This document shows, piece by piece, positions 7,266 through 19,959 of a stretch of DNA of 57,296 nucleotides. This stretch comes from Gemmatimonadota bacterium. Lineage in GTDB: Bacteria; Gemmatimonadota; Gemmatimonadetes; Longimicrobiales; RSA9. Location: the NCBI GenBank assembly GCA_052389275.1, contig JBQTID010000074.1, positions 1 to 57,296 on the forward strand, written 5' to 3'. How positions within the stretch are numbered: position 1 is the stretch's first letter; each line of letters starts with the position of its first letter. The position numbers and the translations under genes were made by a program. The notes beneath the pieces were generated by a model. The model was not told where the DNA came from and ran no database searches. It saw nothing but the letters and a program-made list of their open reading frames with translations.

Positions 7266-9570
7266 GGCGCAGAGAATCATGCATTGAATCCTCATTGGCA
7301 AGGGAGGCTTCCGTGCGCCTTCTCTGCTGCGCGTCCACCACGGCAATGGCGGTCAGGTTGACGATGTCGGCGGCCTCACTGCCGCGCTGAAGCACGTGCA
7401 CCGGTTGCGCCATGCCGAGCAGGATCGGACCGATCGCTTCGGCGCCACCCAGGCGCCACAAGAGTTTGTATGCGATGTTGGCCGAATTGAGGTCGGGGAA
7501 AACCAGCACGTTCGCCCGCTCCTGGAGCGTGCTGAACGGGTAGGTCTTATTCAGAATCTCCGGCAACACTGCCGTGTCCGCCTGCATCTCGCCATCGACG
7601 ATGAGCTCGGGCTCCTGCGACTTGATCAGCTGTACGGCGTCTCGAACCTTGTCACTCTGCGGACTGCGGGCTGATCCGAAGTTCGAGAACGACAGCAGCG
7701 CAATGTGCGGCTCGATGCCGAGCCGCCGCACGTATTGAGCTGACAGCAATGCGATCTCGGCCAGGGTTTCCGCGTCAGGATCGATGTTCACGGTCGTGTC
7801 CGCGAAGAACATCACTTCCTGTTCGAGAATCATCATGTACAGCCCTGCCACGTGCTTGACATGCGCGGCCGTGCCGATGGCTTCGAGTGCGGGCCTGATG
7901 GTGTCGGGATACGCGACTTCCTGGCCGGCAATCAAACCGTCCGCATCGCCTTCGCGTACCATCATGCAGCCGAAGTAGGTAGCGTTGCGCATCATCTCGC
8001 GCGCGGTGTCGAGGGTGACGCCGCGGCGCTGGCGCGAGCGGAAGAACTCTGCTGCGTACCGCTCCTTGCGCTCCTCGTCCGCCCAGTGTTCGACAATGGT
8101 TACGCCGCTCAGATCGAGATGCAGCGCGCTCGCCGCTTCACGAATCCTGACCTCGCGCCCGAGCAGCAGCGGCCGCGCAATACCTTCCTCCCTGCTCGCG
8201 ACCGCGGCGCGGATGATGGTCGGATTCTCACCTTCGGGAAACACGATGCGCTTCGGATCGCGCTGCGCGCGCAGAATGTAGTCGCGCATGACTTCCCGGC
8301 GTCGGCCCAGGCGCCCTTCGAGCTGATTGCGATACTCGGCGAGATCGATCTGGATGCGCGCGACCGCGGTTTCCATCGCGGCTTTCGCGACCGCCGGCGC
8401 GACCCACAACAGCACGCGCGGATCGAACGGCTTCGGAATCAGGTAGTCCTTGCCGAAGCGAAAGGTGGCTTGACCGTATGCAGCCGCGACCGCTTCCGGC
8501 ACGTCCTGCTTCGCGAGCTCGGCCAGCGCCCTGGTCGCCGCCATCTTCATCTCTTCGTTGATCGCGCGCGCCCGTACATCCAGCGCGCCGCGAAAGATGA
8601 AAGGAAACCCGAGCACGTTGTTGACCTGATTCGGATAATCGGAGCGGCCGGTCGCCATGATCGCGTCGGCGCGCACGGCATGCACATCTTCCGGCGTGAT
8701 CTCGGGATCCGGATTGGCCAGCGCGAAGATGATCGGCTGCGCCGCCATCTTTTCGACCATCGCTTGCGTGACTGCGCCCGCAACCGACAACCCCACGAAA
8801 ACGTCCGCACCGTCTAGCGCATCCGCGATCGTCGCCTTCGTGGACTTCTGGACAAAACGCGCCTTGTACGGGTCAAGTCCAGCTTCGCGTCCTGCGCGTA
8901 TCACGCCCTGCCGGTCGCACATGTAGATATGCTGACGCTGCACGCCCAGCCGCACGTAATGCTCGGCAGTCGCGATCGCCGCTGCGCCCGCGCCGCTGAA
9001 GACTACGACGACATGCTCGATTCGTTTGCCGGTGACTTCCAGCGCGTTCAGCAGTGCAGCGCCGCTGATGATGGCAGTGCCGTGCTGGTCGTCATGAAAG
9101 ACCGGAATCTCGAGCTTCTGCTTGAGCTGCTCTTCGATGTAGAAGCAATCGGGCGCGGCGATGTCCTCCAGGTTGATGCCGCCTACGGTGGGCTCGAGCA
9201 GCTCGCAAAAACGGATGATCTCGTCCGCGTTGGTGCTGTCGACTTCGATGTCGAATACGTCTATGTCAGCGAATTTCTTGAAGAGAACGCCTTTCCCCTC
9301 CATGACCGGCTTGGCGCCGAGCGGCCCGAGATTGCCGAGACCGAGCACCGCGGTGCCGTTGGATACGACTGCCACCAGATTGCCGCGCGCCGTGTACTTG
9401 AAGACGTCATCGGGATTTTTGGCGATATCACGGCACGGCTCGGCAACTCCAGGAGTATATGCCAGCGAAAGATCCCGCTGTGTGCCGACCGGCTTGGTCG
9501 CGACTACCGCGATTTTACCGGGCCTGCCTCGCGCGTGATACTCGAGTGCCTCGCCCCGTTTGTCCGCCAT
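7249..9570 (-). CDS. maeB: NADP-dependent malic enzyme with C-terminal phosphotransacetylase-like domain
   Basis: [31 protein letters not shown] motifs, followed by a PTA domain (RIVFPEG, DGEMQAD). Confidence 0.95.
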
Positions 9571-9654
9571 TGCCTGAGAGTAGCTCTCATACAAGCAGCG
9601 GTCCAGACGGTATGACCGCCTGAACCGCAATGACCGCCGGGTCGCCGCCGCGAC

Positions 9655-10836
9655 TTACCAGCTCGTCACGTACTTGTACAGCAACAGATTCGGAGTGCTA
9701 CAGCAGTTCCCGTTGATGACGCCGGACGTAGCTGCATTCAGCAGATAGCTGCGCACCGATGAAGAAGAAATGTCGCCGTAGCGATGCTTGATCAGCGCTG
9801 AAACACCGGCCACGTGCGGCGAGGCCATCGACGTACCGCTGATCGTGTTCGTCTCGGTCGTGCCGCTGCCGATCCACGCCGATTTGATCGCAGAACCCGG
9901 CGCATACAGCTCGACGCACGTTCCGTAATTCGAGTACGACGCCTTGTAATCTGTCTTGGTCGACGCAGCAACGGTAAAGACCGCGCTCGCACTGGAAGGT
10001 GAATAGTTGCACGCGTCCGCATTGCTGTTGCCGGCCGCAACCGCCACGAACACACCGGAATTCGCGAGATTGTTTACGGCCGTGTTCAGCGATGACGAAT
10101 AGCCGCCACCCAGCGACATGTTGGCGACTGCCGGATTGATGCGATTCGAGCGTACCCAGTCGACCGCGGAGATGATGCCGGAGGTCGAACCCGAGCCGCT
10201 GCAATCGAGCACCCGCACGCCGCGCAGATACGCTTTCTTCGCCACACCGTACGTCTTGCCGCCGACCGTTCCGCCCACGTGCGTGCCGTGACCGTTGCAA
10301 TCGTTGCCATTGCCGCCGAACGCGTCGTAGACATTGGACGCGCGACCCTCGAACTGGCCGTGGCCGGTATCGAGACCCGTGTCGATGATGTAGGCGCGCA
10401 CGCCCGAGCCGGTGTAGCTGTACGTGTACGTCCCGTCCAGCGGCAGATAGCGCTGGTTGATGCGGTCGAGCCCCCACGGGTCGCCATTCGAATCCATGTA
10501 CTGCGTCGCATCCAACGTGACCGTTTGATCCGGCTCGATGTAGTCGACGTTTGGATTGCGGCGCAACGCAGTCAATTGACCGGCATTCAATGTGCCCGCA
10601 AAACCGTTCAGCGCAGACGTGTAGACATACCGGGGATTGACCCCCGCTACCGCGGCAACAGAACGCGGATCTGCACCGTCTTTCAGCACGACAATGTAGG
10701 AATCCTTGATATTCTGCCCCTGCACCGACAGCAGCGGCGCGCCGGCATCGGCCGGCGCCACCTGTGTCGGATCATCGGCGCACGCGGCCAGCGCCAGCAC
10801 GCACAACGCGAGTACTGCTAACTGCCGTTTGTTCAT
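9655..10836 (-). CDS. S8 subtilase (aqualysin/proteinase K-like) lipoprotein with I9 prodomain
   Basis: Lipobox LAAC; catalytic triad motifs IIDTG, HGTHV, GTSMASPHV. Confidence 0.93.
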   Translation of the reverse strand: MNKRQLAVLALCVLALAACADDPTQVAPADAGAPLLSVQGQNIKDSYIVVLKDGADPRSVAAVAGVNPRYVYTSALNGFAGTLNAGQLTALRRNPNVDYIEPDQTVTLDATQYMDSNGDPWGLDRINQRYLPLDGTYTYSYTGSGVRAYIIDTGLDTGHGQFEGRASNVYDAFGGNGNDCNGHGTHVGGTVGGKTYGVAKKAYLRGVRVLDCSGSGSTSGIISAVDWVRSNRINPAVANMSLGGGYSSSLNTAVNNLANSGVFVAVAAGNSNADACNYSPSSASAVFTVAASTKTDYKASYSNYGTCVELYAPGSAIKSAWIGSGTTETNTISGTSMASPHVAGVSALIKHRYGDISSSSVRSYLLNAATSGVINGNCCSTPNLLLYKYVTSW

Positions 10837-10860
10837 ATGCCCACCTCTCTGATCGTGAAG

Positions 10861-10894
10861 AAAAAGTGCCCGGCGTCGTTCCAACGCCGGGCAC
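10861..10894 (-). terminator. Intrinsic terminator-like hairpin between subtilase genes
   Basis: GTGCCCGGCGT..ACGCCGGGCAC stem with an adjacent A5 tract (U tract on the minus strand). Confidence 0.65.
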
Positions 10895-10922
10895 CCGGAA
10901 TCCGTCCGCCAGGACATAACCA

Positions 10923-12089
10923 CTAGAACTTGCCCACGTACAGCCGCGTGATGGTGCGGCCGTCCTTGCTCGTGTTCGCGGTCGTCGTCGCGTTGGTCTT
11001 GAGCGCGCTTTCGACCGTGGCCGGGCTCGCGCCCGTGTTGCTCGACAGGTACAACGCGCCGCCGCCACCCACGTGCGGCGACGCCATCGACGTGCCGCTC
11101 ATGGTGGTGGTGCCGCCGCCCTTCTTGGTCGACAGAATGCTGACGCCCGGCGCCCAGATGTCGACGCAGTTGCCGAAGTTGCTCCACGAGGCTTCCTTGT
11201 CGTTGCTGTCGGTGGCCGCCGTCGTGGTGACGCCGTTGTGCGTGCCGGCGCGCGCCGGCGAAAAGTTGCACGCGTCCGCGCCATCGTTGCCGGCCGCGAT
11301 CGCGTAGAAGACGCCGCTGTCCGCCGACTTCTTGACCGCGTCATCGACCGCCTGCGACGCACCGCCGCCCAGACTCATGTTCGCGATGGCCGGCTTCTTC
11401 GCATTCGCCGTGACCCAGTCCACGCCCTTGATCACGCCGCTGTTCGAGCCGGTGCCGCCGCAGCCCAGCACCTTCACGCCCGTGATCGGCGCGCCCGGCG
11501 CCACGCCCACCACGTCCGACGTGTTGTCCTTCGCCGCGACCGTGCCGGCCACGTGCGTGCCGTGACCATGGCAGTCGTTGTTCGGGCCGCTCGCGAAGTT
11601 GACGTGGTTCACGACGTTGAGATCCGCGTGCTTGGCGTCGGCGCCGGTATCGATGATGTAGACGTTGACGTTGCTGATGGTGCCGGTGCCGTCGCCGGCC
11701 TTGGTCGAGGAGATGTCGGCATCGATCTTGTCGATGCCCCACGGCAGCGTCTGCGCGACCGCCGACATAACACCGTCCTCCTCGACGTACGCCACGCGCG
11801 GATCGTTGCTGAGCGCCGCCAGCCGGCCATCCGGCACCGAGGCCGCGAAACCGAACAGTGCCGCACCATACGTGAAGCGCGGTGTCACGCCGAAAGAGCG
11901 CGCGACGTCCGCTGCCCGCGCCAGGTTGGCCTCGTAGCCGCCCGGCGCGAATTCACTCTTGAGAACCACGACGACATCCGTGCTGCCCGACTTCGAGAAC
12001 TGCACATCCGGAGCGGTCGGCTGCTCGCCGGTTTCCTGGCACGCAGCCACCGCGACTGCAACTACGAAGGGAGTCATCCAGCGTTTCAT
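10923..12089 (-). CDS. S8 subtilase lipoprotein with I9 prodomain
   Basis: AGGAG RBS, lipobox [25 protein letters not shown]. Confidence 0.93.
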   Translation of the reverse strand: MKRWMTPFVVAVAVAACQETGEQPTAPDVQFSKSGSTDVVVVLKSEFAPGGYEANLARAADVARSFGVTPRFTYGAALFGFAASVPDGRLAALSNDPRVAYVEEDGVMSAVAQTLPWGIDKIDADISSTKAGDGTGTISNVNVYIIDTGADAKHADLNVVNHVNFASGPNNDCHGHGTHVAGTVAAKDNTSDVVGVAPGAPITGVKVLGCGGTGSNSGVIKGVDWVTANAKKPAIANMSLGGGASQAVDDAVKKSADSGVFYAIAAGNDGADACNFSPARAGTHNGVTTTAATDSNDKEASWSNFGNCVDIWAPGVSILSTKKGGGTTTMSGTSMASPHVGGGGALYLSSNTGASPATVESALKTNATTTANTSKDGRTITRLYVGKF

Positions 12090-12143
12090 CGTGCGGCTCC
12101 TGTTTCTGGTGATCACGAAAAAAGGCGCGACGCGCGTCCCACC

Positions 12144-13301
12144 TCAGTAATTCGAGAAGAGCAGGTGATTGTTCGCCGTGTTCGACGACGTCACGATGCC
12201 CTTCGTCGTATTCGCGTAGAGCGCGTCGCGCACTGTCTGTGCGGATGCGCCCGGGTTGCTCTGGAGATAGAGCGCCGCGACACCCGCGGTGTGCGGCGTC
12301 GCCATTGACGTGCCGCTGATCGTGTTCGTCGCTGTGTCACTGTCATCCCAGGCCGATGTGATGCCGAGACCAGGCGCGAACCAATCGACGCACGGTCCGT
12401 AGTTCGACCAGCTCGTCTTCTTGTCCGTCTTGTCGGTTGCGCCAATCGTGATCGCCTCCGGCACGCGCGCGGGTGAATACTTGCACGCGTCCTGGGCGCG
12501 GCCGCCCTGGTTGCCGTTGCCGGCCGCAACCGAAGTCGATACGCCTGACGCGATCATGCGCTTGGTCGCATCATCGACCGACGTGTTGGCGCCGCCACCG
12601 AGCGACATATTTGCAACCGCTGGCAACACCCGATTCGCCGTGACCCAGTCCATGCCTGCGATCACGCCACTCCAGGTGCCGGATCCGCTGCAATCGAGCA
12701 CGCGCACCGCAACCAGCGCCACGCTCTTCGCGATGCCGTAAGTCGTGCCGCCGACCGTGCCGGCCACGTGCGTGCCATGGCCGTTGCAGTCATTAGTGCC
12801 ATTGCCATCATCGATCGCTGTAAAGCCGCCCGTGGCACGGCCGCCGAATTCGTTATGCGTGACACGAATGCCGGTATCAATGATGTAGGCCGTCACGCCG
12901 CTGCCTGTGTTGGTGTACGTATAACTGGTGTCGAGCGGCAGGCCGCGCTGGTCAGTGCGATCAAGGCCCCAGGTCGCTGGCTTCTGAGTCGTAGACGCTG
13001 TCGCAATGCCGTCTGCCTCCACACGTGTGACTCGCGCATCGCGCAGCAGTCCGGCGCGCGCGGCGTCAGACATCGCACCCGCGAAGCCGTTCAGAACGGT
13101 CGTATAAACATAGTCCGGAGCTACCCCATGCTCTGCGGCGACGGCGGCCGGGTTGGCGCCATCACTAAGCGTAACAATGAAGCGGCCGGGGATCGTGGCG
13201 AACTGCGGCGTAGCGTCGTCGCCGGCGGGTGTTGTGACCTGATTGATGTCGCTACATGCGGCGATCGCGAGCACCAGGACAAAAGGGAGCTTCCGGTTCA
13301 T
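12144..13301 (-). CDS. S8 subtilase (aqualysin-like) lipoprotein with I9 prodomain
   Basis: GGAGG RBS, lipobox [24 protein letters not shown]. Confidence 0.93.
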
Positions 13302-13361
13302 CGACAAGCCTCCAAAGGGTAGTTTTTGAGAACATCTACGTGCGATGGGCGGAAACCCCTA

Positions 13362-13377
13362 TGCAGGCCCCAGGCCT
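13362..13377 (-). promoter_or_regulatory. Putative sigma54 -24/-12 promoter for the subtilase cluster
   Basis: Minus strand AGGCCTGGGGCCTGCA (GG-N10-GC), about 60 bp upstream of the start; AT-containing imperfect palindrome just upstream (13395-13419). Confidence 0.5.
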
Positions 13378-13442
13378 ATGCCGCACATAAGCTCAACTCT
13401 TTGTGTAGCAACGGGTTGCGCACTTGGACCCGTGCGGTGAAA

Positions 13443-13578
13443 CGTCTCAATTTGGTGCATTCCCCAGCCGGGCGCCCCGATTTGGTGCACGAAGGGTCGT
13501 GATGGCGACATCCTCATGGCCCCGTTCGAGTGCGTCTGATTTCGGTTGGCACGCCCTTGCGCGCACTAAATCGGTGCA
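13443..13578. promoter_or_regulatory. Three NtrC/Fis-type upstream activator sites
   Basis: CGTCTCAATTTGGTGCA (13443), CGCCCCGATTTGGTGCA (13473), CGCACTAAATCGGTGCA (13562); these resemble the NtrC consensus TGCACC-N5-GGTGCA. Confidence 0.6.
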
Positions 13579-13614
13579 CTAGACTCTGGAACACACTCAT
13601 CCCTCAGGTATTTC

Positions 13615-14934
13615 ATGGCGATCCTCGCCCTCACGAGCTCGCCCGCTTCACTCGGGTCCCTGACGGACGTCTTCGGCCCCGAGGAGTTTTGCATCGAATC
13701 CAGACCGGCGCAGGGATTGGTTCGAGCGCAGCAGGCGGTCTGGTCGGTAGTTCTGGTCGATGCCGATTTTGGCGGCGATTCAGCCATCGAGGTGGTCGAG
13801 CGTCTGGCGGCGTCCGGGCAGGCGGTCGCGCTGATCGCGCGCGCGCCGTCGCTGCGCACGACCCTCGAAGCAATGGACCGCGGCGCGCGCGATGTGCTGC
13901 CGTTTCCGCCCGAAGCCGGCAAGCTTCGCGAGCTCGTGATGCGCTGCCACAAGGCCGGCGCGCGCGGCGCGGTTTCGGTGGCGCCTTCGTCGGATACTGC
14001 CGGCTCGATTGTGGGCGAGAGCCCGCGCATGCTCGAGGCCTTCATGACGATCGCGCGTGTCTCCAAGAGCTCCGCGACCGTGCTGATCCGGGGTGAGAGC
14101 GGCACCGGCAAGGAGATGATTGCGCGCACGATTCACGAGCGCAGCGCGCGCGCGGGGGGACCATTCGTGGCCGTGAACTGCGCGGCAATTCCGGAAAACC
14201 TGCTCGAGTCCGAGCTGTTCGGCCACGAAAAGGGCGCGTTCACCGGTGCGATCGCGCGTCGTATTGGCCGTTTCGAGCGGGCGTCGGGAGGCACCCTGTT
14301 TCTCGATGAAATCGGCGACATGAGCCTGTCGCTTCAGGCGAAGATCCTGCGCGTGCTTCAGGAGCGCGAAGTTGAGCGCGTCGGTGGCAGCGCGCCGGTT
14401 ACGGTAGATGTGAGATTGATCGCCGCGACGCATCGCGACCTGGAGAGCGATGTGGTCGCTGGTCGTTTTCGCGAGGACCTGTATTACCGGCTGGCGGTCG
14501 TGACCATGCAGCTGCCGGCGCTGCGCGAGCGTGGCGATGATCTGCGTGTGTTGGCGGAGCATTACCTCGAGCGCTACGCTCGCGAATACAACCGGCCGCT
14601 GCACGCGATTTCGCGCGAGGCGCTCAACGTGCTGCGCGCCTACAGCTGGCCGGGCAATGTGCGCCAGCTGCGGAATGTCATCGAAAGCGCCGTGTTGCTG
14701 GCTGACGGTGACACACTGCTGCCCTGTCATTTGCCGCCGGAGCTGGTCGCGCCGCAGCCGGTGCCCGAGTATTCGGAGTCCGTGCTGCCGCTTATCACGC
14801 TCACCGAGCTGGAGCGGCGCCACATACAGAAGGTGCTGGCCGTGAGCGGCGGCCAGATGAACGTAGCAGCAGAGATTCTCGGCATTCACCGTAATACGCT
14901 GCGCCGCAAGCTTGCGGATTACGGCATCGCCTGA
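13615..14934 (+). CDS. Sigma54-dependent enhancer-binding activator (atypical receiver-AAA+-Fis HTH)
   Basis: [36 protein letters not shown], and C-terminal [15 protein letters not shown]. Confidence 0.95.
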
Positions 14935-15014
14935 AGTCGTCACAAATCGCTATCGCAGTTGCAGTCTGGTGCCGTTATCTAGGTAAGCGCCACATCCTAC
15001 AGGGAGAGCATCCA

Positions 15015-15578
15015 ATGAATCGATTCACCCGTGTTGCTGCTGTCGTGCTGACGCTGTTCAGCGCGGCATGCAGTGACGAACCGGTTACGCCGCACGCTAC
15101 CGGTCGCCAATTCTCGACCGCGCAGGGCGGCGATTTGAGCAAGGTCGCGAGATACACATCCGGCGCGCCGGACGTGCTTTTCGGTTTCGCGTCGAAATCG
15201 ATCGGGCCGGCGGGCGGCAGCATCCGGCTGCTCGATTTTGAGGTCATCGTGCCGGCCAAGGCAGTCGCGAAAGCGACGAATTTCACAATCCGATTGCCCG
15301 CCGATCCGTTCGGTGCCGAGTACGCGTATGCCGAATTCGGCCCGCACGGCTTGAGGTTCGCGACGCCGGTGACCATCAGGCTGCCGTACCAGGGCACGAC
15401 CTCGGAAGGTGGCACGCCGCACGTGATGTGGAACAACAGCGGCCAGTGGGTAGCCTTTCCAACGTCGGCTACCGAAGACGGTCGCATCCAGGCGCAGACT
15501 AACCACTTCTCGGAATATGGCACGGAAGAAACCGACCCCAGCCGCGGCATTACACTCGCGGGCAAGCGCCTCCGCTGA
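15015..15578 (+). CDS. Lipoprotein with ZU5-like domain ending in an HFS motif
   Basis: Lipobox SAAC; IGPAGG..IVPAKAV..FGPHGLRFATPVTIRLPY..TNHFS pattern typical of ZU5-like domains. Confidence 0.7.
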   Translation: MNRFTRVAAVVLTLFSAACSDEPVTPHATGRQFSTAQGGDLSKVARYTSGAPDVLFGFASKSIGPAGGSIRLLDFEVIVPAKAVAKATNFTIRLPADPFGAEYAYAEFGPHGLRFATPVTIRLPYQGTTSEGGTPHVMWNNSGQWVAFPTSATEDGRIQAQTNHFSEYGTEETDPSRGITLAGKRLR

Positions 15579-15585
15579 AGCCGGT

Positions 15586-16833
15586 GTGACGCTGGATCGG
15601 TTGCTCGGCGCTCTCCCCGAGCAACACGAACTTGCGCCACTGCGGCATGCGTTGCTACGCACGTCCGTGCCGGATGCGGCGCGGGCGTGGGCGCATTCGA
15701 GTGCGTATGCAACGGTCGACAAGCGCGTCATTACAGCGGACGCGCTGCGCGCCGCCGCCGCGGATGCCAGGAACGCGGCGCATGCGCGCGCCGACGCGCT
15801 GTATGATGCGGTTACGGAAGTGCTGGAGTTTGCCGCGCACAACGACGACGTCGCGGCGGCTCTTCGATTGATCGCGATCGGCGAGTCGGCGGAGGCGGAA
15901 GAGAATTATCGAACCGCTTGCGCGTATTACGAGGTGGCCGGCCGTTTCAGCGAGACCCTGGCCGACCGCCGGGTGCGGGTGCTCGCGCTACGCCGCCTGG
16001 CGCGCGCACGTGCCGCCCTCGGCGATGTGGATCTGGCGATCTCGGTTTTCCGCGCGAGCCTGGAGCAAGCGGTTGCGGCCGAGGACATCGAGGCTCAAGT
16101 GTACGTTCAACTGGGTCTCGGCAACATCATGGGATTCCAGGGCCGCTGGCAGGAAGGCAGCCAGTACTATGAGGCCGCCCGTGCTCTGTGCGGCGATCAG
16201 TTCCCGCGCTTGCGCGGCCAGATCGCAATCAACCTCGCGGTCATGCACCGGGAGCGCGGCGACCTCGAAGCAGCCTCGGCGCAGCAGGCGGCAGCATCCG
16301 CATTATGGAGCGAGATGGCACCCGCCGACCACTCCGTGTGGTACAACAGTCGCGGATTGCTGGCCGTGGCGCGCGGCGAAACCGACGCCGCGGAGACGAT
16401 TTTCCGGCAGGCATTGGAAACTGCCGGCAGCGATTTCGACCGGGCCATGGTCCTCGATAACCTGGCTGAGCTGTTCATTCAGCAAGGCAATCTCGCGGAT
16501 GCGGAGGCGTACGCGCGCGCAGCCGAAGAACTGGCGTTGAGCGCGGCTTCGCCACGGGCTCTTGCGGAGATATATACGCGTCTCGGCAAGATCTTCCGCC
16601 TGCGCTCGGATCTGAACGGTGTTACGTTTTTCGAAAAAGCGCTGGAGATCTGCCGTGGCCGCAGATATCCACTGACCGAGGCGAACGCATATCTCGAATA
16701 CGGTATCTTCCGTCGCACACTCGGCGACACCGAAGAGGCTCGCTCCTATATCGAGCGGGCGCGACAGCTGTGCGCCGACATCGGCGCCGCGCAGCTGGAG
16801 CGCGTCGCGTCCGAGCAGTTCGCGCAGCTCTAA
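15586..16833 (+). CDS. Tetratricopeptide-repeat protein
   Basis: Repeated TPR-like helices (LGLGNI, INLAVM, NSRGLL, DNLAEL, TRLGKI); start placed at GTG 15586, after the upstream stop. Confidence 0.8.
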   Translation: MTLDRLLGALPEQHELAPLRHALLRTSVPDAARAWAHSSAYATVDKRVITADALRAAAADARNAAHARADALYDAVTEVLEFAAHNDDVAAALRLIAIGESAEAEENYRTACAYYEVAGRFSETLADRRVRVLALRRLARARAALGDVDLAISVFRASLEQAVAAEDIEAQVYVQLGLGNIMGFQGRWQEGSQYYEAARALCGDQFPRLRGQIAINLAVMHRERGDLEAASAQQAAASALWSEMAPADHSVWYNSRGLLAVARGETDAAETIFRQALETAGSDFDRAMVLDNLAELFIQQGNLADAEAYARAAEELALSAASPRALAEIYTRLGKIFRLRSDLNGVTFFEKALEICRGRRYPLTEANAYLEYGIFRRTLGDTEEARSYIERARQLCADIGAAQLERVASEQFAQL

Positions 16834-16834
16834 T

Positions 16835-18595
16835 CCGGCTTTTCTCGCACTACTCCTGCTTGTCCTGACAGCTCCGTCGTTTGCGCAACGCCCGTGCGCC
16901 ACCGGCACGATCTCCTTCATCTTCATCGACAACCATTCGATCTTCGACACGAACGATCCCGATCTGGATCGGCGGTTCGGCTGGGCGTATCGCGCGGCGA
17001 ACGCGCTGCACGTGAGAACCCGGCGCAGTGTGGTCGAGCGCGAGCTGCTGTTCGGTCCCGGCGATTGTTATGATGCGTACTTGCTCGAGGAAACCGAGCG
17101 CTTGCTGCGCGCGTACGACTTTCTGGCGCAAGTAGACGTATTCGGCATTCCACAGCCCGATGGCAGCTACCATGTGGTGGTCGACACGCGCGATCAGTGG
17201 AGCACATCGCTGGACCTGCGCCTCGGATTCGATCGCGGCCTGAAGTTCGAGGGTATGCGCCTGCGGGAGTCGAATCTGCTCGGCACCGGGCAGGAGATCG
17301 GTTTTTTCTATATCGATCGCGATGTCACACGCGATTACGGCATAGCATACGGCACGCGTCAGCTCGCGGGCACCCGCTGGGATCTGAATACTTCGCTGGG
17401 ACGCACGAGAGCGGGGTCGTTCTTTACGCAGAGCATCGCGTATCCCTTTGTCGGTGAGGTAGGGCAGTGGGGCGCGCGCCAGAGCTTTTCGCATGAAGAC
17501 CAATTCTTCGATTACATCGCTGTCGACAGCGCGCAGGCTGTCACTCGACATGTTCTGCTGCCGGTACGGGAAAAACTCTTCGATGTTGCCGTAGGTACGC
17601 GCTTCGGCAATCGCGGCAATCTGACCGTGCTCGGCGGCATCATCAGTTACGAGCAGTTGACCTATCCGGCTGCCATACAAGTCGCCGAGGCCGGCGACTT
17701 CGCTGACCGCGTTCCCGGCGACTCGGCGTTGACCGAGCAAATCGCCTCACAGTTGCAGCCGCTGGGCAGTGTTCGCGCCGGTCTCGTGCTCGGCCAGCGC
17801 AACATTTGGTGGGTGAAGCGGCGTGGCTTCGACAGTATGCGCGGCCAGCAGGATGTACCGCTCGGCGCCGACGTGGCGGTCGCATTCGCACGCTCGATTC
17901 CGGGACTCAAACGCGACAACGATATGGTCGGCACATTTCGCCTGTATACCGGACTGGAGACCGGCCCGGCACTCCTCGCAACTCGGCTGCGGCTGGATGC
18001 GCGCCGCGATCTCGACGCAGCTAGCGACATGCCCGAATGGGAAGATGTCTACGCTGACGGCGAGCTGCTGACGTACTGGAAGCCCGCGTCACTGTCGCGC
18101 CACACTTTTTTTGTGCGCACTGCCGCCGCTGCGGCCTGGAACACGCGCACGCCGTTTCAGCTGACGCTGGGCGGAGACCGCAACCTGCGTGGCTATCCGG
18201 ACGAACGGTTTCCCGGCGGCCGGCGCGTGATCGTCAATGCCGAGGATCGCATCTATTTCGGCTGGCCATTGCGCGAAGTACTGGACGTTGGTGGCACGGT
18301 ATTCGTCGACGGCGGGCGTATTTGGCCAGGCGACGTTCCGTTCGGCAGTGATTCCGGCTGGCGCGCCAGCGCAGGCGTTGGTCTGCGCGGTTCATTTCCC
18401 GCCGGCGGCCGCTCCACGTTTCGCATCGATGTCGCAACGCCACTCGATGGTGGCCTGCGCTTCAAGAATTTTCGCGTGATTCTCTCCGCATCGGAACTGC
18501 TTGGGCTGCGAACCGTCAACACACCGGATGTGCAATTGATCCGCTCGCGCAATGAAGGCGTGGAAGGTTTTCTTTTCCGGATGCGCAATCAATGA
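16835..18595 (+). CDS. BamA/TamA-like outer-membrane protein (POTRA plus beta-barrel); 5' end probably frameshifted
   Basis: The frame is open from a signal-like FLALLLLVLTAPSFAQ, then RELLFGPGD..LEETERLLR (POTRA) and LRGY..F.G. There is no in-frame start; the likely start is GTG at about 16770 with a 1-nt indel in a T run near 16840. Confidence 0.75.
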   Translation, partial: PAFLALLLLVLTAPSFAQRPCATGTISFIFIDNHSIFDTNDPDLDRRFGWAYRAANALHVRTRRSVVERELLFGPGDCYDAYLLEETERLLRAYDFLAQVDVFGIPQPDGSYHVVVDTRDQWSTSLDLRLGFDRGLKFEGMRLRESNLLGTGQEIGFFYIDRDVTRDYGIAYGTRQLAGTRWDLNTSLGRTRAGSFFTQSIAYPFVGEVGQWGARQSFSHEDQFFDYIAVDSAQAVTRHVLLPVREKLFDVAVGTRFGNRGNLTVLGGIISYEQLTYPAAIQVAEAGDFADRVPGDSALTEQIASQLQPLGSVRAGLVLGQRNIWWVKRRGFDSMRGQQDVPLGADVAVAFARSIPGLKRDNDMVGTFRLYTGLETGPALLATRLRLDARRDLDAASDMPEWEDVYADGELLTYWKPASLSRHTFFVRTAAAAAWNTRTPFQLTLGGDRNLRGYPDERFPGGRRVIVNAEDRIYFGWPLREVLDVGGTVFVDGGRIWPGDVPFGSDSGWRASAGVGLRGSFPAGGRSTFRIDVATPLDGGLRFKNFRVILSASELLGLRTVNTPDVQLIRSRNEGVEGFLFRMRNQ

Positions 18596-19959
18596 CCGGG
18601 CGCCCGCGCCTTTATTCGGCGCGCTGGCTTTTAACCGTCACGCAACCGCCGCTGCGCGACTTTGCGATGCTGGTCGGGGCGAATGGTCGAATCGAGCGTA
18701 TCGCACCGGTCGGCTCGTTCGATGCTGAAGACCATTACGAGCGCAGCGATTTCGGCGACGCCGCGATTCTGCCGGGACTGGTCAACGTGCACGCGCATCC
18801 GGAGCTTTCGGTCATGCGCGGCTTGCTCGAGGATCTGCCGTTTCACGAGTGGATTCCCACGCTGATGCGTTGCAAGCGCGCTGCGAATCTCACACTGGTT
18901 GACTACGCGGTGGCGGCGCGCTGGACCTGCGTCGAGGCGTTGCGCGCCGGTATCACCACCATTGGCGCCACTGAAGATTCGGGGGCCGCGGTCTGCGCGC
19001 TCGGCGAGGCCGGTATGCGCGGCCGGGTTTATCTCGAGGTCTTCGGACCCGCGCCCGAGCAGGCGAGCGAATCATTGCAGTCACTGCGCTCGAGAGTTGA
19101 GGAGCATGCGGCTCTCGCAACCGAGCGGGTGCAGCTCGGTGTCTCACCGCACGCTCCCTTTTCCGTGTCCGATGCATTATTCACGCTGGTTGCGGCTTAC
19201 GCGCGCGAAGAGCGGCTGCCGATCGCGACGCATGCCGCCGAATCCGAGGCGGAAGAGCTGCTCGTGCGCGCAGCGCTCGGGCCCTTTGCGGCCGGATTGC
19301 GGTCGCGCGGCATTGAGGTTGCGCCGCGCGGGCGCTCCGCAATCGATCTGCTCACGCGCACCGGCATTCTCGATCTCGCACCGCTCATCATTCACGGCAT
19401 TCGCGTATCCGTCGGCGAGCTGCGCGCCATCGCTGCGGCCGGCGCGTCGATCGCGCACTGTCCGATCGCAAATGCGCGGCTCGGCCATGGGATCGCTCCG
19501 ATTGTCGAGGCGCTGGACCAGAGCGTCACGGTCGCTATTGGCACTGACTCGGTTGCGAGCAACAACCGGCTCGATCTGCTGGAGGAAGCCCGCGCGGCGC
19601 AGGCGCTTCAGCGGGCCCGCTTGCGGAACGCGTCCGCACTACCGAGCGAACAGCTGCTGCGTCTCATCACCATCGAAGGTGCACGCGTGCTGGGCATGGC
19701 TGACAGAATTGGCTCGCTCGAAGTCGGCAAGGACGCGGATTTCTGTGTCGTGTCACTGGCCGGTCCGCACAGCGTGCCGGTCGCGGAGCCATTGGCGGCC
19801 GTATTTCACGCCGCGCGTGGCAGCGATGTGCTGCTGACCGCCGTGGCCGGTCGCCATCTCTTCGAAACAGGACGCGTAACCACTTTGGATGAAGCCGAGC
19901 TGCGTGAGCAAGTCGATGCGATCGGCGCGCGGCTGCGCGCCGTGAGGAACGGCGCATGA
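18592..19959 (+). CDS. Amidohydrolase (MTA/SAH or futalosine deaminase-like)
   Basis: PGLVNVHAH, SPHAPFS, THAAES, IGTDS, GSLEVGKDAD motifs. Confidence 0.85.
   Translation: MTGRPRLYSARWLLTVTQPPLRDFAMLVGANGRIERIAPVGSFDAEDHYERSDFGDAAILPGLVNVHAHPELSVMRGLLEDLPFHEWIPTLMRCKRAANLTLVDYAVAARWTCVEALRAGITTIGATEDSGAAVCALGEAGMRGRVYLEVFGPAPEQASESLQSLRSRVEEHAALATERVQLGVSPHAPFSVSDALFTLVAAYAREERLPIATHAAESEAEELLVRAALGPFAAGLRSRGIEVAPRGRSAIDLLTRTGILDLAPLIIHGIRVSVGELRAIAAAGASIAHCPIANARLGHGIAPIVEALDQSVTVAIGTDSVASNNRLDLLEEARAAQALQRARLRNASALPSEQLLRLITIEGARVLGMADRIGSLEVGKDADFCVVSLAGPHSVPVAEPLAAVFHAARGSDVLLTAVAGRHLFETGRVTTLDEAELREQVDAIGARLRAVRNGA

Follow-up and report, generated by a model that had tools for sequence, protein, structure and literature searches.

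We describe a gene cluster in a 57,296-nt stretch of a contig from a soil bacterium of the Gemmatimonadota (hereafter the window; all coordinates are positions within it) that combines an exported lipoprotein, a cytoplasmic protein built of tetratricopeptide repeats (TPRs), an activator of sigma54-dependent transcription and three lipid-anchored subtilases. The lipoprotein (15015–15578, plus strand; 187 aa) begins with a signal peptide and Cys19 (15015–15071) and consists of a ZU5 domain that ends in the triplet H164-F165-S166 (HFS; 15504–15512), followed by a predicted post-cleavage peptide (15510–15575). The gene for the all-TPR protein comes next on the same strand (15586–16833; 415 aa from a GTG at 15586), and upstream lies that of a sigma54 enhancer-binding protein (13615–14934, plus strand) in which Pfam, NCBIfam and an alignment of orthologues distinguish a degenerate receiver, an AAA+ domain with the GAFTGA motif and an HTH_8 domain. 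Tentatively, we regard the cluster as one member of a signalling module, found across the Gemmatimonadota, in which a cytoplasmic TPR sensor is coupled to an exported ZU5 lipoprotein.

Divergent from this trio, on the minus strand, are three intact genes for S8 lipoprotein proteases. The map of open reading frames (ORFs) and the Pfam and NCBIfam scans bore out the gene list and positions given in a first-pass annotation, made from the sequence alone, including its three lipid-anchored S8 proteases: each has a Peptidase_S8 domain and an Inhibitor_I9 propeptide, and its translation shows a hydrophobic N-terminus leading to a lipobox Cys together with the Asp/His/Ser triad motifs. They are gene 1 (9655–10860; Peptidase_S8 127.6 bits, Inhibitor_I9 42.5 bits, lipobox LALAAC), gene 2 (10923–12116, with a likely ATG start at 12089; 136.9 bits, VAVAAC) and gene 3, the first of the run (12144–13307; 124 bits, LAIAAC). 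That annotation had also remarked on the absence of a histidine kinase near the cluster, and indeed none of the 36 HATPase_c matches in the genome lies on this contig. A PADLOC search for anti-phage defence systems gave generic subtilase, AAA+/helix-turn-helix (HTH) and TPR matches only, and none for the lipoprotein or for the Omp85-family protein encoded downstream.

The ZU5 lipoprotein and its HFS triplet

The domain first described as ZU5-like is a genuine ZU5 domain, as Pfam, sequence search and structure comparison agree. The match to Pfam ZU5 (PF00791) is marginal, its 22.4 bits (E 1.5e-4) being just above the cut-off of 21. Searched genome-wide, the Pfam ZU5 model gave no match, nor did it in any control genome, which makes that search uninformative. 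An exhaustive phmmer search with the lipoprotein returned 787 representatives at E ≤ 1e-3. Pfam recognised ZU5 in 13 of the 25 longer matches scanned, two of which are of eukaryotic type, one with ZU5 and Death domains and the other with ankyrin repeats, ZU5 and Death. The AlphaFold2 (AF2) model has a mean predicted local distance difference test score (pLDDT) of 83.9, rising above 90 in the core (residues 41–170), with a strand at 167–171 and a disordered tail. Foldseek matched this model to the ankyrin ZU5 domain with E 1.2e-6, and VIA-align gave Z scores of 11.4, 10.8 and 10.6 for ankyrin ZU5 (at best a root-mean-square deviation of 2.8 over 116 residues), 8.9 for UNC5b, 7.2–8.3 for the GAIN domain of adhesion G-protein-coupled receptors (GPCRs), and 6.1 and 5.8 for the FIIND domains of CARD8 and NLRP1.

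The triplet itself is strictly kept. H164, F165 and S166 are invariant in all 38 aligned sequences (38 of 92 close relatives), lying at the C-terminal end of the domain and followed by a strand, and HFS occurs in 201 of 239 relatives collected more widely. Most of the latter start with a lipoprotein-type signal and continue past HFS either for 7–30 residues or into large surface domains, among them RCC1, VWA, beta-helix and Kelch. In the window the tail after F165 is SEYGTEETDPSRGITLAGKRLR, 22 aa long. The strand that follows HFS is the most conserved segment of the lipoprotein (entropy 0.49 as against 1.36 for the core), and the tail, predicted to be disordered, keeps G178 (38/38) and G183 (36/38); a Gly-Gly C-terminus is conserved in many relatives. 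A strand of such conservation and two near-invariant glycines in a disordered tail favour a functional peptide.

In fold, in the terminal H-F-S triplet and in the beta-strand that follows, the lipoprotein resembles the self-cleaving domains of PIDD1 and Nup98 (HF/S) and the FIIND of CARD8 and NLRP1 (SF/S). D'Osualdo (2011; PMC3210808) describes cleavage between F and S by an N–O acyl shift, after which the fragments remain associated. Unlike these animal members of the superfamily, the window's protein is bacterial, exported and lipid-anchored, has no UPA or death domain, carries 22 residues past the site, and is a predicted rather than a demonstrated autopeptidase. Bacterial precedents come from Zhang et al. 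(2012; PMC3482391), where N-terminal ZU5 'releasing autopeptidases' are predicted in polymorphic toxins and large surface proteins. Those proteins are alike in being secreted, in the N-terminal position of ZU5 and in the predicted release of the part downstream, whereas the lipoprotein described here carries no cargo or toxin and is accompanied by a TPR sensor and a sigma54 activator instead of immunity or secretion genes.

Judged by its motif, the lipoprotein may cut itself between F165 and S166. The first-pass annotation had gone further, proposing that cleavage would release the tail as a peptide. In the AF2 model the strand after HFS is an integral part of the fold, so that the predicted cleavage alone would leave the peptide bound.

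The TPR protein and the distribution of the pair

The TPR frame is open from an ATG at 15517 to 16833 and encodes no signal peptide. The GTG at 15586, 7 nt past the lipoprotein stop codon, is the probable start, since relatives align only from residue 23–25 and many database relatives are 415 aa long. The structure model (pLDDT 92.8) comprises about eight helix pairs after an N-terminal part of 87 residues, which is made of helices and a loop and belongs to no known family. Pfam found TPR families only, without an HTH or phosphatase-bundle effector part. The best PDB and sequence matches are LGN/Pins, designed consensus TPR proteins and the TPR superhelix of OGT, all of which bind extended peptides in the groove of the superhelix.

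A parallel with the TPR receptors of the RRNPP quorum-sensing family, drawn at first, found no support, as no specific likeness emerged from the Pfam, sequence or structure matches listed. No RRNPP entry is among the matches listed for the model, TPR folds matching very widely; the protein has no match to RNPP_C at E ≤ 0.01 and none to an HTH domain; and a paralogue (L029) reaches 24.0 bits against RNPP_C, below the cut-off of 26.5. The TPR protein is no demonstrable member of the RRNPP family, yet it could work like one.

Residues 36–48 of the TPR protein (15691–15729), the only low-confidence loop of the model, carry the motif W-x2-S-S-A-Y-A-T-x-D-K-R, with W, T and R kept in 56/56 and Y and D in 55/56. 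The motif resembles the post-cleavage strand of the lipoprotein, S-[ET]-Y-G-T-[ET]-[ED] (residues 166–172, 15510–15530), and the pattern S-x-Y-x-T-x-[DE] occurs twice only in 86,489 residues of context proteins, one occurrence being in an orthologous TPR protein. This likeness was noticed post hoc; going by the sequence, the loop may be an internal mimic of the lipoprotein peptide.

Scanning a single genome for each species gave 22 related loci, all labelled Gemmatimonadota, whose neighbourhoods were compared by tblastn with the window's proteins. Of these loci 21 have the activator (missing in L002), and 21 have the TPR gene (missing in L019, where the contig ends), whilst S8 proteases are adjacent in nine, vary in number and orientation, and are represented by fragments only in two of the nine. 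At the closest relative (L001), whose activator is 78% identical, a malic-enzyme gene abuts the activator with no proteases between. The conserved linkage of the genes, the first check proposed for the cluster, thus holds for the activator, lipoprotein and TPR trio, which we take as the core, but not for the proteases, which are accessory. L002 and L003 are two contigs of one metagenome-assembled genome with two copies of the lipoprotein–TPR pair. One copy has an activator and an S8 gene; the other adjoins a malic-enzyme gene, has no activator and has a −24/−12-like element upstream. The two copies may reflect a mixed bin or a true duplication.

The window's own genome holds ZU5 lipoproteins at three places, according to a profile of the family, and both of the further modules lie beside proteins in which TPRs are joined to an HD domain (TPR-HD). 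On contig C229 a single lipoprotein (tail HFSKYCMAEN) is followed by a TPR-HD protein. On contig C46 (17000–24500, L056) two tandem lipoproteins with identical tails (HFSDYSPATD), two TPR-HD proteins and an SBP_bac_5 binding protein run in one direction, and a receiver-less sigma54 activator is divergent from the lipoprotein run; a response-regulator-PAS-GGDEF gene lies a few kb away.

Across the phylum, 77 of 201 sampled genomes had a match at E ≤ 1e-5 (a tally that includes the unpublished G057 and G182). The sample returned 29 loci, five of which, with large or unclear ORFs, were set aside. In 20 of the 24 remaining short-lipoprotein loci the neighbouring gene encodes a TPR-only protein (~345 aa) or a TPR-HD_5 protein (~500 aa), and the spacing between lipoprotein and TPR genes is often 0–25 nt; the four without a TPR neighbour are L028 (transposase), L038, L041 and L040 (contig end). 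In 20 extended regions, profiles of the two families picked out 24 ORFs for ZU5 proteins and 31 for TPR proteins, and all 31 of the latter match the profile of the window's TPR family (E 1e-17 to 1e-149), which occurs alone or, in paralogues, fused to an HD-type (HD_5) cyclic di-GMP (c-di-GMP) phosphodiesterase domain.

The company kept by these pairs was surveyed in 58 of the 110 other ORFs within 3.5 kb in the same 20 regions. Sigma54 activators were found in six regions, three of them sensor-less and placed between TPR and TPR-HD genes; SBP_bac_5 proteins in four, within the operon, as also in the C46 module; a POT peptide transporter with an Opp-type ATPase in one; HtrA-like proteases in two; and Ser/Thr kinases in two. 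The window's genome has three SBP_bac_5 genes in total and 11 strong activator matches, of which one and two, respectively, stand at ZU5–TPR modules. Module binding proteins from four genomes are 33–50% identical to one another, and the C46 protein is 46% identical to another SBP_bac_5 protein of its own genome; being closer to that protein than to the other module proteins, it indicates at least two independent recruitments. Some paralogous lipoproteins (L064, L076) have longer, Cys-rich tails after HFS (RYILIS..VWVCVEGC..); these adjoin modules whose tail is the short RYMLxSx, and divergent from them is a gene for an HtrA-like protease.

The activator and its candidate promoters

The activator matches Sigma54_activat (249 bits), AAA_lid_14 and HTH_8 (48 bits) in Pfam and contains GAFTGA, whereas its N-terminal 132 aa score 14.8 bits against Response_reg, for which the cut-off is 30.2. 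An alignment of 11 orthologues shows T/S, A and F in the window's receiver where the acidic pair, Thr and Lys would be expected. These residues are lost in the window, in L001 and in L003 (Response_reg 28.2 bits), whilst orthologues labelled Longimicrobium or Longimicrobiaceae keep the acidic pair, Asp, Thr/Ser and Lys and score 34–44 bits. The description of the activator as atypical is therefore apt for the window, where, as the alignment indicates, the degenerate receiver is a derived state, but not for its orthologues with a canonical domain. The latter also mean that a distant kinase is possible as the input to the activator family; the 15 ORFs scanned in the neighbourhood of related loci included no kinase gene. 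The activator shares its AAA+ domain, GAFTGA and HTH_8 with NtrC- and PspF-type activators controlled in trans, and differs from them in its degenerate receiver and in having no PspA-like gene. The genome does have, at another place, a gene for sigma54 itself (rpoN).

Between the activator and lipoprotein genes, 19 of the 22 loci have a GG-N10-GC element of the type cGGTACGcnCCGTGCt, preceded by TGCACC/GGTGCA repeats. In the window the same hexamers are found in the spacer between the proteases and the activator, where three GGTGCA repeats (13454, 13484 and 13573; 13454–13578) are candidate activator sites. At 0.51 per kb, the rate for the genome, a spacer of 307 bp should contain about 0.15 of them, and clusters of the kind number only nine genome-wide. 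Two of the three repeats are conserved in L001, and the hexamers lie 130–270 nt upstream of S8 genes in eight of nine upstream regions examined. A weak sigma54-type −24/−12 candidate of GG-N10-GC form, AGGCCTGGGGCCTGCA (13362–13377, minus strand), is located ~55 nt upstream of protease gene 3. We count it because GG-N10-GC elements were seen by eye at like places upstream of S8 genes in seven other loci; a pattern search flagged −24/−12-like elements upstream of the S8 genes in L003 (1075) and L017 (496), the others being visual and weak. The activator would thus, on the motifs alone, control the lipoprotein–TPR operon in the majority of relatives, together with any protease operon attached to it. 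The control of protease expression envisaged at the outset accordingly finds a counterpart in the repeats before the S8 genes, which are like those of the lipoprotein operon, and less of one in the sigma54-type element, which is weak.

A weighted sigma54-consensus scan of the window gave 192 sites, too noisy in such G+C-rich DNA, and was replaced by the comparison across loci. A near-consensus site upstream of the activator, TTGGCACGCCCTTGCG (13546–13561), was rejected as a promoter, having GG-N9-GC spacing and a GG that is not conserved in L001. A sigma70 scan of 9500–19000 found no site. Between protease genes 2 and 1 a terminator-like hairpin (10864–10896, minus strand; a 15-pair stem with 10 G-C pairs, then a T run), recognised by consensus match only, suggests that the three proteases may not form one transcript.

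A stored peptide as a possible signal from the envelope

Starting from what was computed here, namely the fold, the invariant HFS, the lipoprotein–TPR pairing, the recurrent peptide-binding and protease partners and the shared repeats, we infer cleavage, retention, release, uptake, TPR binding and control of the activator. The reading we provisionally prefer, at somewhat less than even confidence, is that a self-cleaved C-terminal peptide is read by the cytoplasmic TPR sensor in a cell-autonomous relay from envelope to cytoplasm. The lipoprotein would be exported and lipidated, and its ZU5 domain would cut itself between F165 and S166, the new C-terminal peptide being held as the last beta-strand (S166–E171) with a tail that is flexible and conserved in part. 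This peptide would come free once the carrier unfolds or is digested, here by the co-regulated S8 lipoproteins and in other modules by an HtrA-like protease. The peptide or a fragment of it would then be taken up, in paralogous modules by way of dedicated SBP_bac_5 proteins, and would be bound in the TPR groove. So loaded, the TPR protein would alter the activity of the sigma54 activator, whose degenerate receiver presumably cannot accept a phosphoryl group, and the activator would drive the sigma54-type promoter of the protease operon and, in the orthologues labelled Longimicrobium or Longimicrobiaceae, the lipoprotein–TPR operon too. Sister modules would use the same TPR family fused to its HD-type c-di-GMP phosphodiesterase domain. 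The signal is more probably cell-autonomous, reporting on the envelope or on proteolysis, than a quorum pheromone specific to a strain: conservation of the strand and the glycines favours a peptide, whilst the integral strand and the conserved tail oppose simple release and quorum sensing.

A more detailed form of the relay, possible but on balance unlikely, is a tethered-peptide relay without a transmembrane sensor, in which a periplasmic or surface lipoprotein of ZU5/GAIN type, once self-cleaved, keeps its own C-terminal strand in store as a latent signal. After the carrier has been proteolysed or unfolded and a dedicated binding protein has imported the peptide, a family of TPR receptors would switch sigma54 transcription or c-di-GMP breakdown. 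In the window's family the TPR protein may, in addition, be auto-inhibited by its internal S-x-Y-x-T-x-D copy until the real peptide displaces it. The GAIN domain of adhesion GPCRs, related in fold to the lipoprotein ZU5 domain (Foldseek E 4e-3 to 1e-2, besides the Z scores above), offers one parallel. Its self-cleaved terminal strand stays bound as a tethered agonist until the carrier is disturbed, the same logic as proposed here, although its cleavage motif differs from HFS. The module, in contrast to GAIN receptors, has no seven-transmembrane receptor, and the proposed receiver is a separate cytoplasmic TPR protein. A second parallel is the Rap–Phr system, in which an exported precursor is encoded beside a TPR receptor, extracellular proteases and oligopeptide uptake supply the mature peptide, and the receptor acts on a response-regulator-type protein. 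Should the model hold, the module would work alike in the adjacency of precursor and receptor, in its proteases and uptake and in its response-regulator-type target. The abstracts found describe the RRNPP(A) family as Gram-positive, and the module is no member of it: the phylum is diderm, the precursor is a folded lipoprotein predicted to cleave itself, and the outputs are sigma54 transcription and c-di-GMP.

Several points weigh against the relay, all the steps of which are predicted ones. An integral strand is predicted for the residues after HFS, and in paralogous lipoproteins the tails, 7–8 aa long, may be no more than the end of the fold; from one species or family to another the tail is conserved, unlike the diversification typical of a pheromone; and the TPR protein has no specific RRNPP similarity. 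In the window's own cluster there is no gene for a binding protein or permease. The gap between activator and lipoprotein genes in the window and in L001 is only 80 nt and contains no GG-N10-GC element, whilst AGGCCTGGGGCCTGCA scores no better than many other sites in the G+C-rich window. The ancestral input to the activator, given the canonical receivers of its orthologues, may have been a kinase. Lastly, two signals that speak for the relay, the synteny and a correlation of ZU5 and TPR distances over 27 pairs (r 0.77, a value reached in 0 of 2000 shuffles), are expected for any module inherited as a unit; the correlation bears on the co-variation of tail and TPR protein proposed as a check at the outset and is confounded by shared descent.

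The main rival to the relay, doubtful though quite conceivable, does away with peptide sensing. The TPR protein would regulate the activator, or the TPR-HD enzyme in sister modules, by protein–protein contact, much as an anti-activator does in trans or RcbA does with RcbB; the lipoprotein would be a mere output of the operon, and it and the proteases would be envelope proteins. RcbA and RcbB of Vibrio vulnificus (PMC12282931) are a TPR-only protein and a TPR-containing cyclase that interact through their TPRs. They are alike in having a TPR-only protein beside an enzyme or activator that it may control, and the abstract describes no lipoprotein partner. Sensor-less activators directly after the TPR gene in L064, L073 and L076 agree with such control, the sigma54-type promoter before the lipoprotein operon in 19 of 22 loci makes the lipoprotein at least an output, and the post-HFS strand is structural in the AF2 model. 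What regulation by TPR contacts leaves unexplained is the tie of the TPR family to ZU5-HFS lipoproteins whatever its output domain (20/24 loci), the invariance of HFS and the recurrence of peptide-binding and uptake proteins in the operons. The adjacency and tight spacing of the genes (7 nt in the window, often 0–25 nt elsewhere), with a cytoplasmic TPR protein and an exported lipoprotein, would also fit secretion-coupled partner switching, in which the TPR protein binds the unexported lipoprotein precursor and is released to act on the activator once export goes ahead or stalls. A paradigm exists in type III secretion, where TPR chaperones bind their substrates. We know of no requirement for dedicated TPR chaperones among Sec/Lol substrates, however, and partner switching, which needs neither an invariant HFS nor periplasmic SBP_bac_5 and protease partners, seems quite improbable.

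Classical quorum sensing, the idea put forward in the first-pass annotation, draws equally on the evidence for the relay: once released, the 22-mer or some piece of it produced by the S8 proteases would accumulate outside, be re-imported and report cell density to an RRNPP-like receptor. Paralogous modules within one genome differ in their tails (SEYGT..., SDYSPATD and SKYCMAEN), which would allow orthogonal channels, and the Omp85-family protein, whose gene follows that of the TPR protein in 13 of 22 loci, could place the lipoprotein on the cell surface. However, the TPR protein has no detectable RRNPP homology and the tail is conserved between species and families instead of diversified, both of which make this variant doubtful; the diderm envelope would have to be crossed twice, and the Omp85 gene, coupled as it is to a conserved block of housekeeping appearance, may have nothing to do with the module. 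We consider it improbable. Covalent chemistry provides the last alternative. The acyl-ester formed at HFS might be resolved by a nucleophile other than water, attaching the ZU5 domain or the tail to the envelope, or the lipoprotein might be a substrate or regulator of the S8 proteases, the link to the TPR protein being regulatory only in both cases. An ester intermediate belongs to the published mechanism (PMC3210808), and many relatives end in a conserved Gly-Gly; the cluster has no conserved transferase or sortase-like gene, and the proposal is otherwise pure inference, so that we rate the two versions together as very improbable.

The tethered-peptide form of the relay, if true, would be a counterpart of RRNPP signalling that diderms evolved independently, and in bacteria it would set a precedent for the logic of the tethered agonist in adhesion GPCRs. 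If the relay works as proposed, signalling by exported and re-imported peptides with cytoplasmic repeat receptors would extend to a diderm phylum from Firmicutes and their phages, to which the abstracts found assign it. The relay would give a function to the widespread, unstudied bacterial ZU5-HFS lipoproteins (the 787 representatives above), show that bacteria, too, use the principle of a self-cleaved 'stored strand' familiar from the GAIN and FIIND domains, and explain how receiver-defective sigma54 activators and TPR-gated c-di-GMP phosphodiesterases receive input from the envelope. The parts are of known kinds (ZU5 autopeptidase, TPR protein, NtrC-type activator and subtilases), and it may be their combination that is new; the literature listings and passages searched by keyword contained no description of ZU5 lipoproteins paired with TPR, sigma54 or HD-GYP genes. 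All the parts are small and soluble, which makes the model directly testable.

The Omp85-family gene (17012–18595, plus strand), which encodes a barrel with one POTRA-like region, is a conserved neighbour but a doubtful member of the module. Translational coupling ties it to a block of amidohydrolase, cation-efflux (CDF) and methyltransferase genes; this block is conserved too, so the Omp85 gene may be a mere neighbour. Its frame is open 5′ of the first ATG, GTG or TTG (17012), and the region 16834–17011, directly past the TPR stop codon, encodes a signal-peptide-like stretch without a standard start codon, which may point to a non-standard start or an assembly error. Orthologues of the Omp85 protein are ~600–650 aa long and have a signal peptide.

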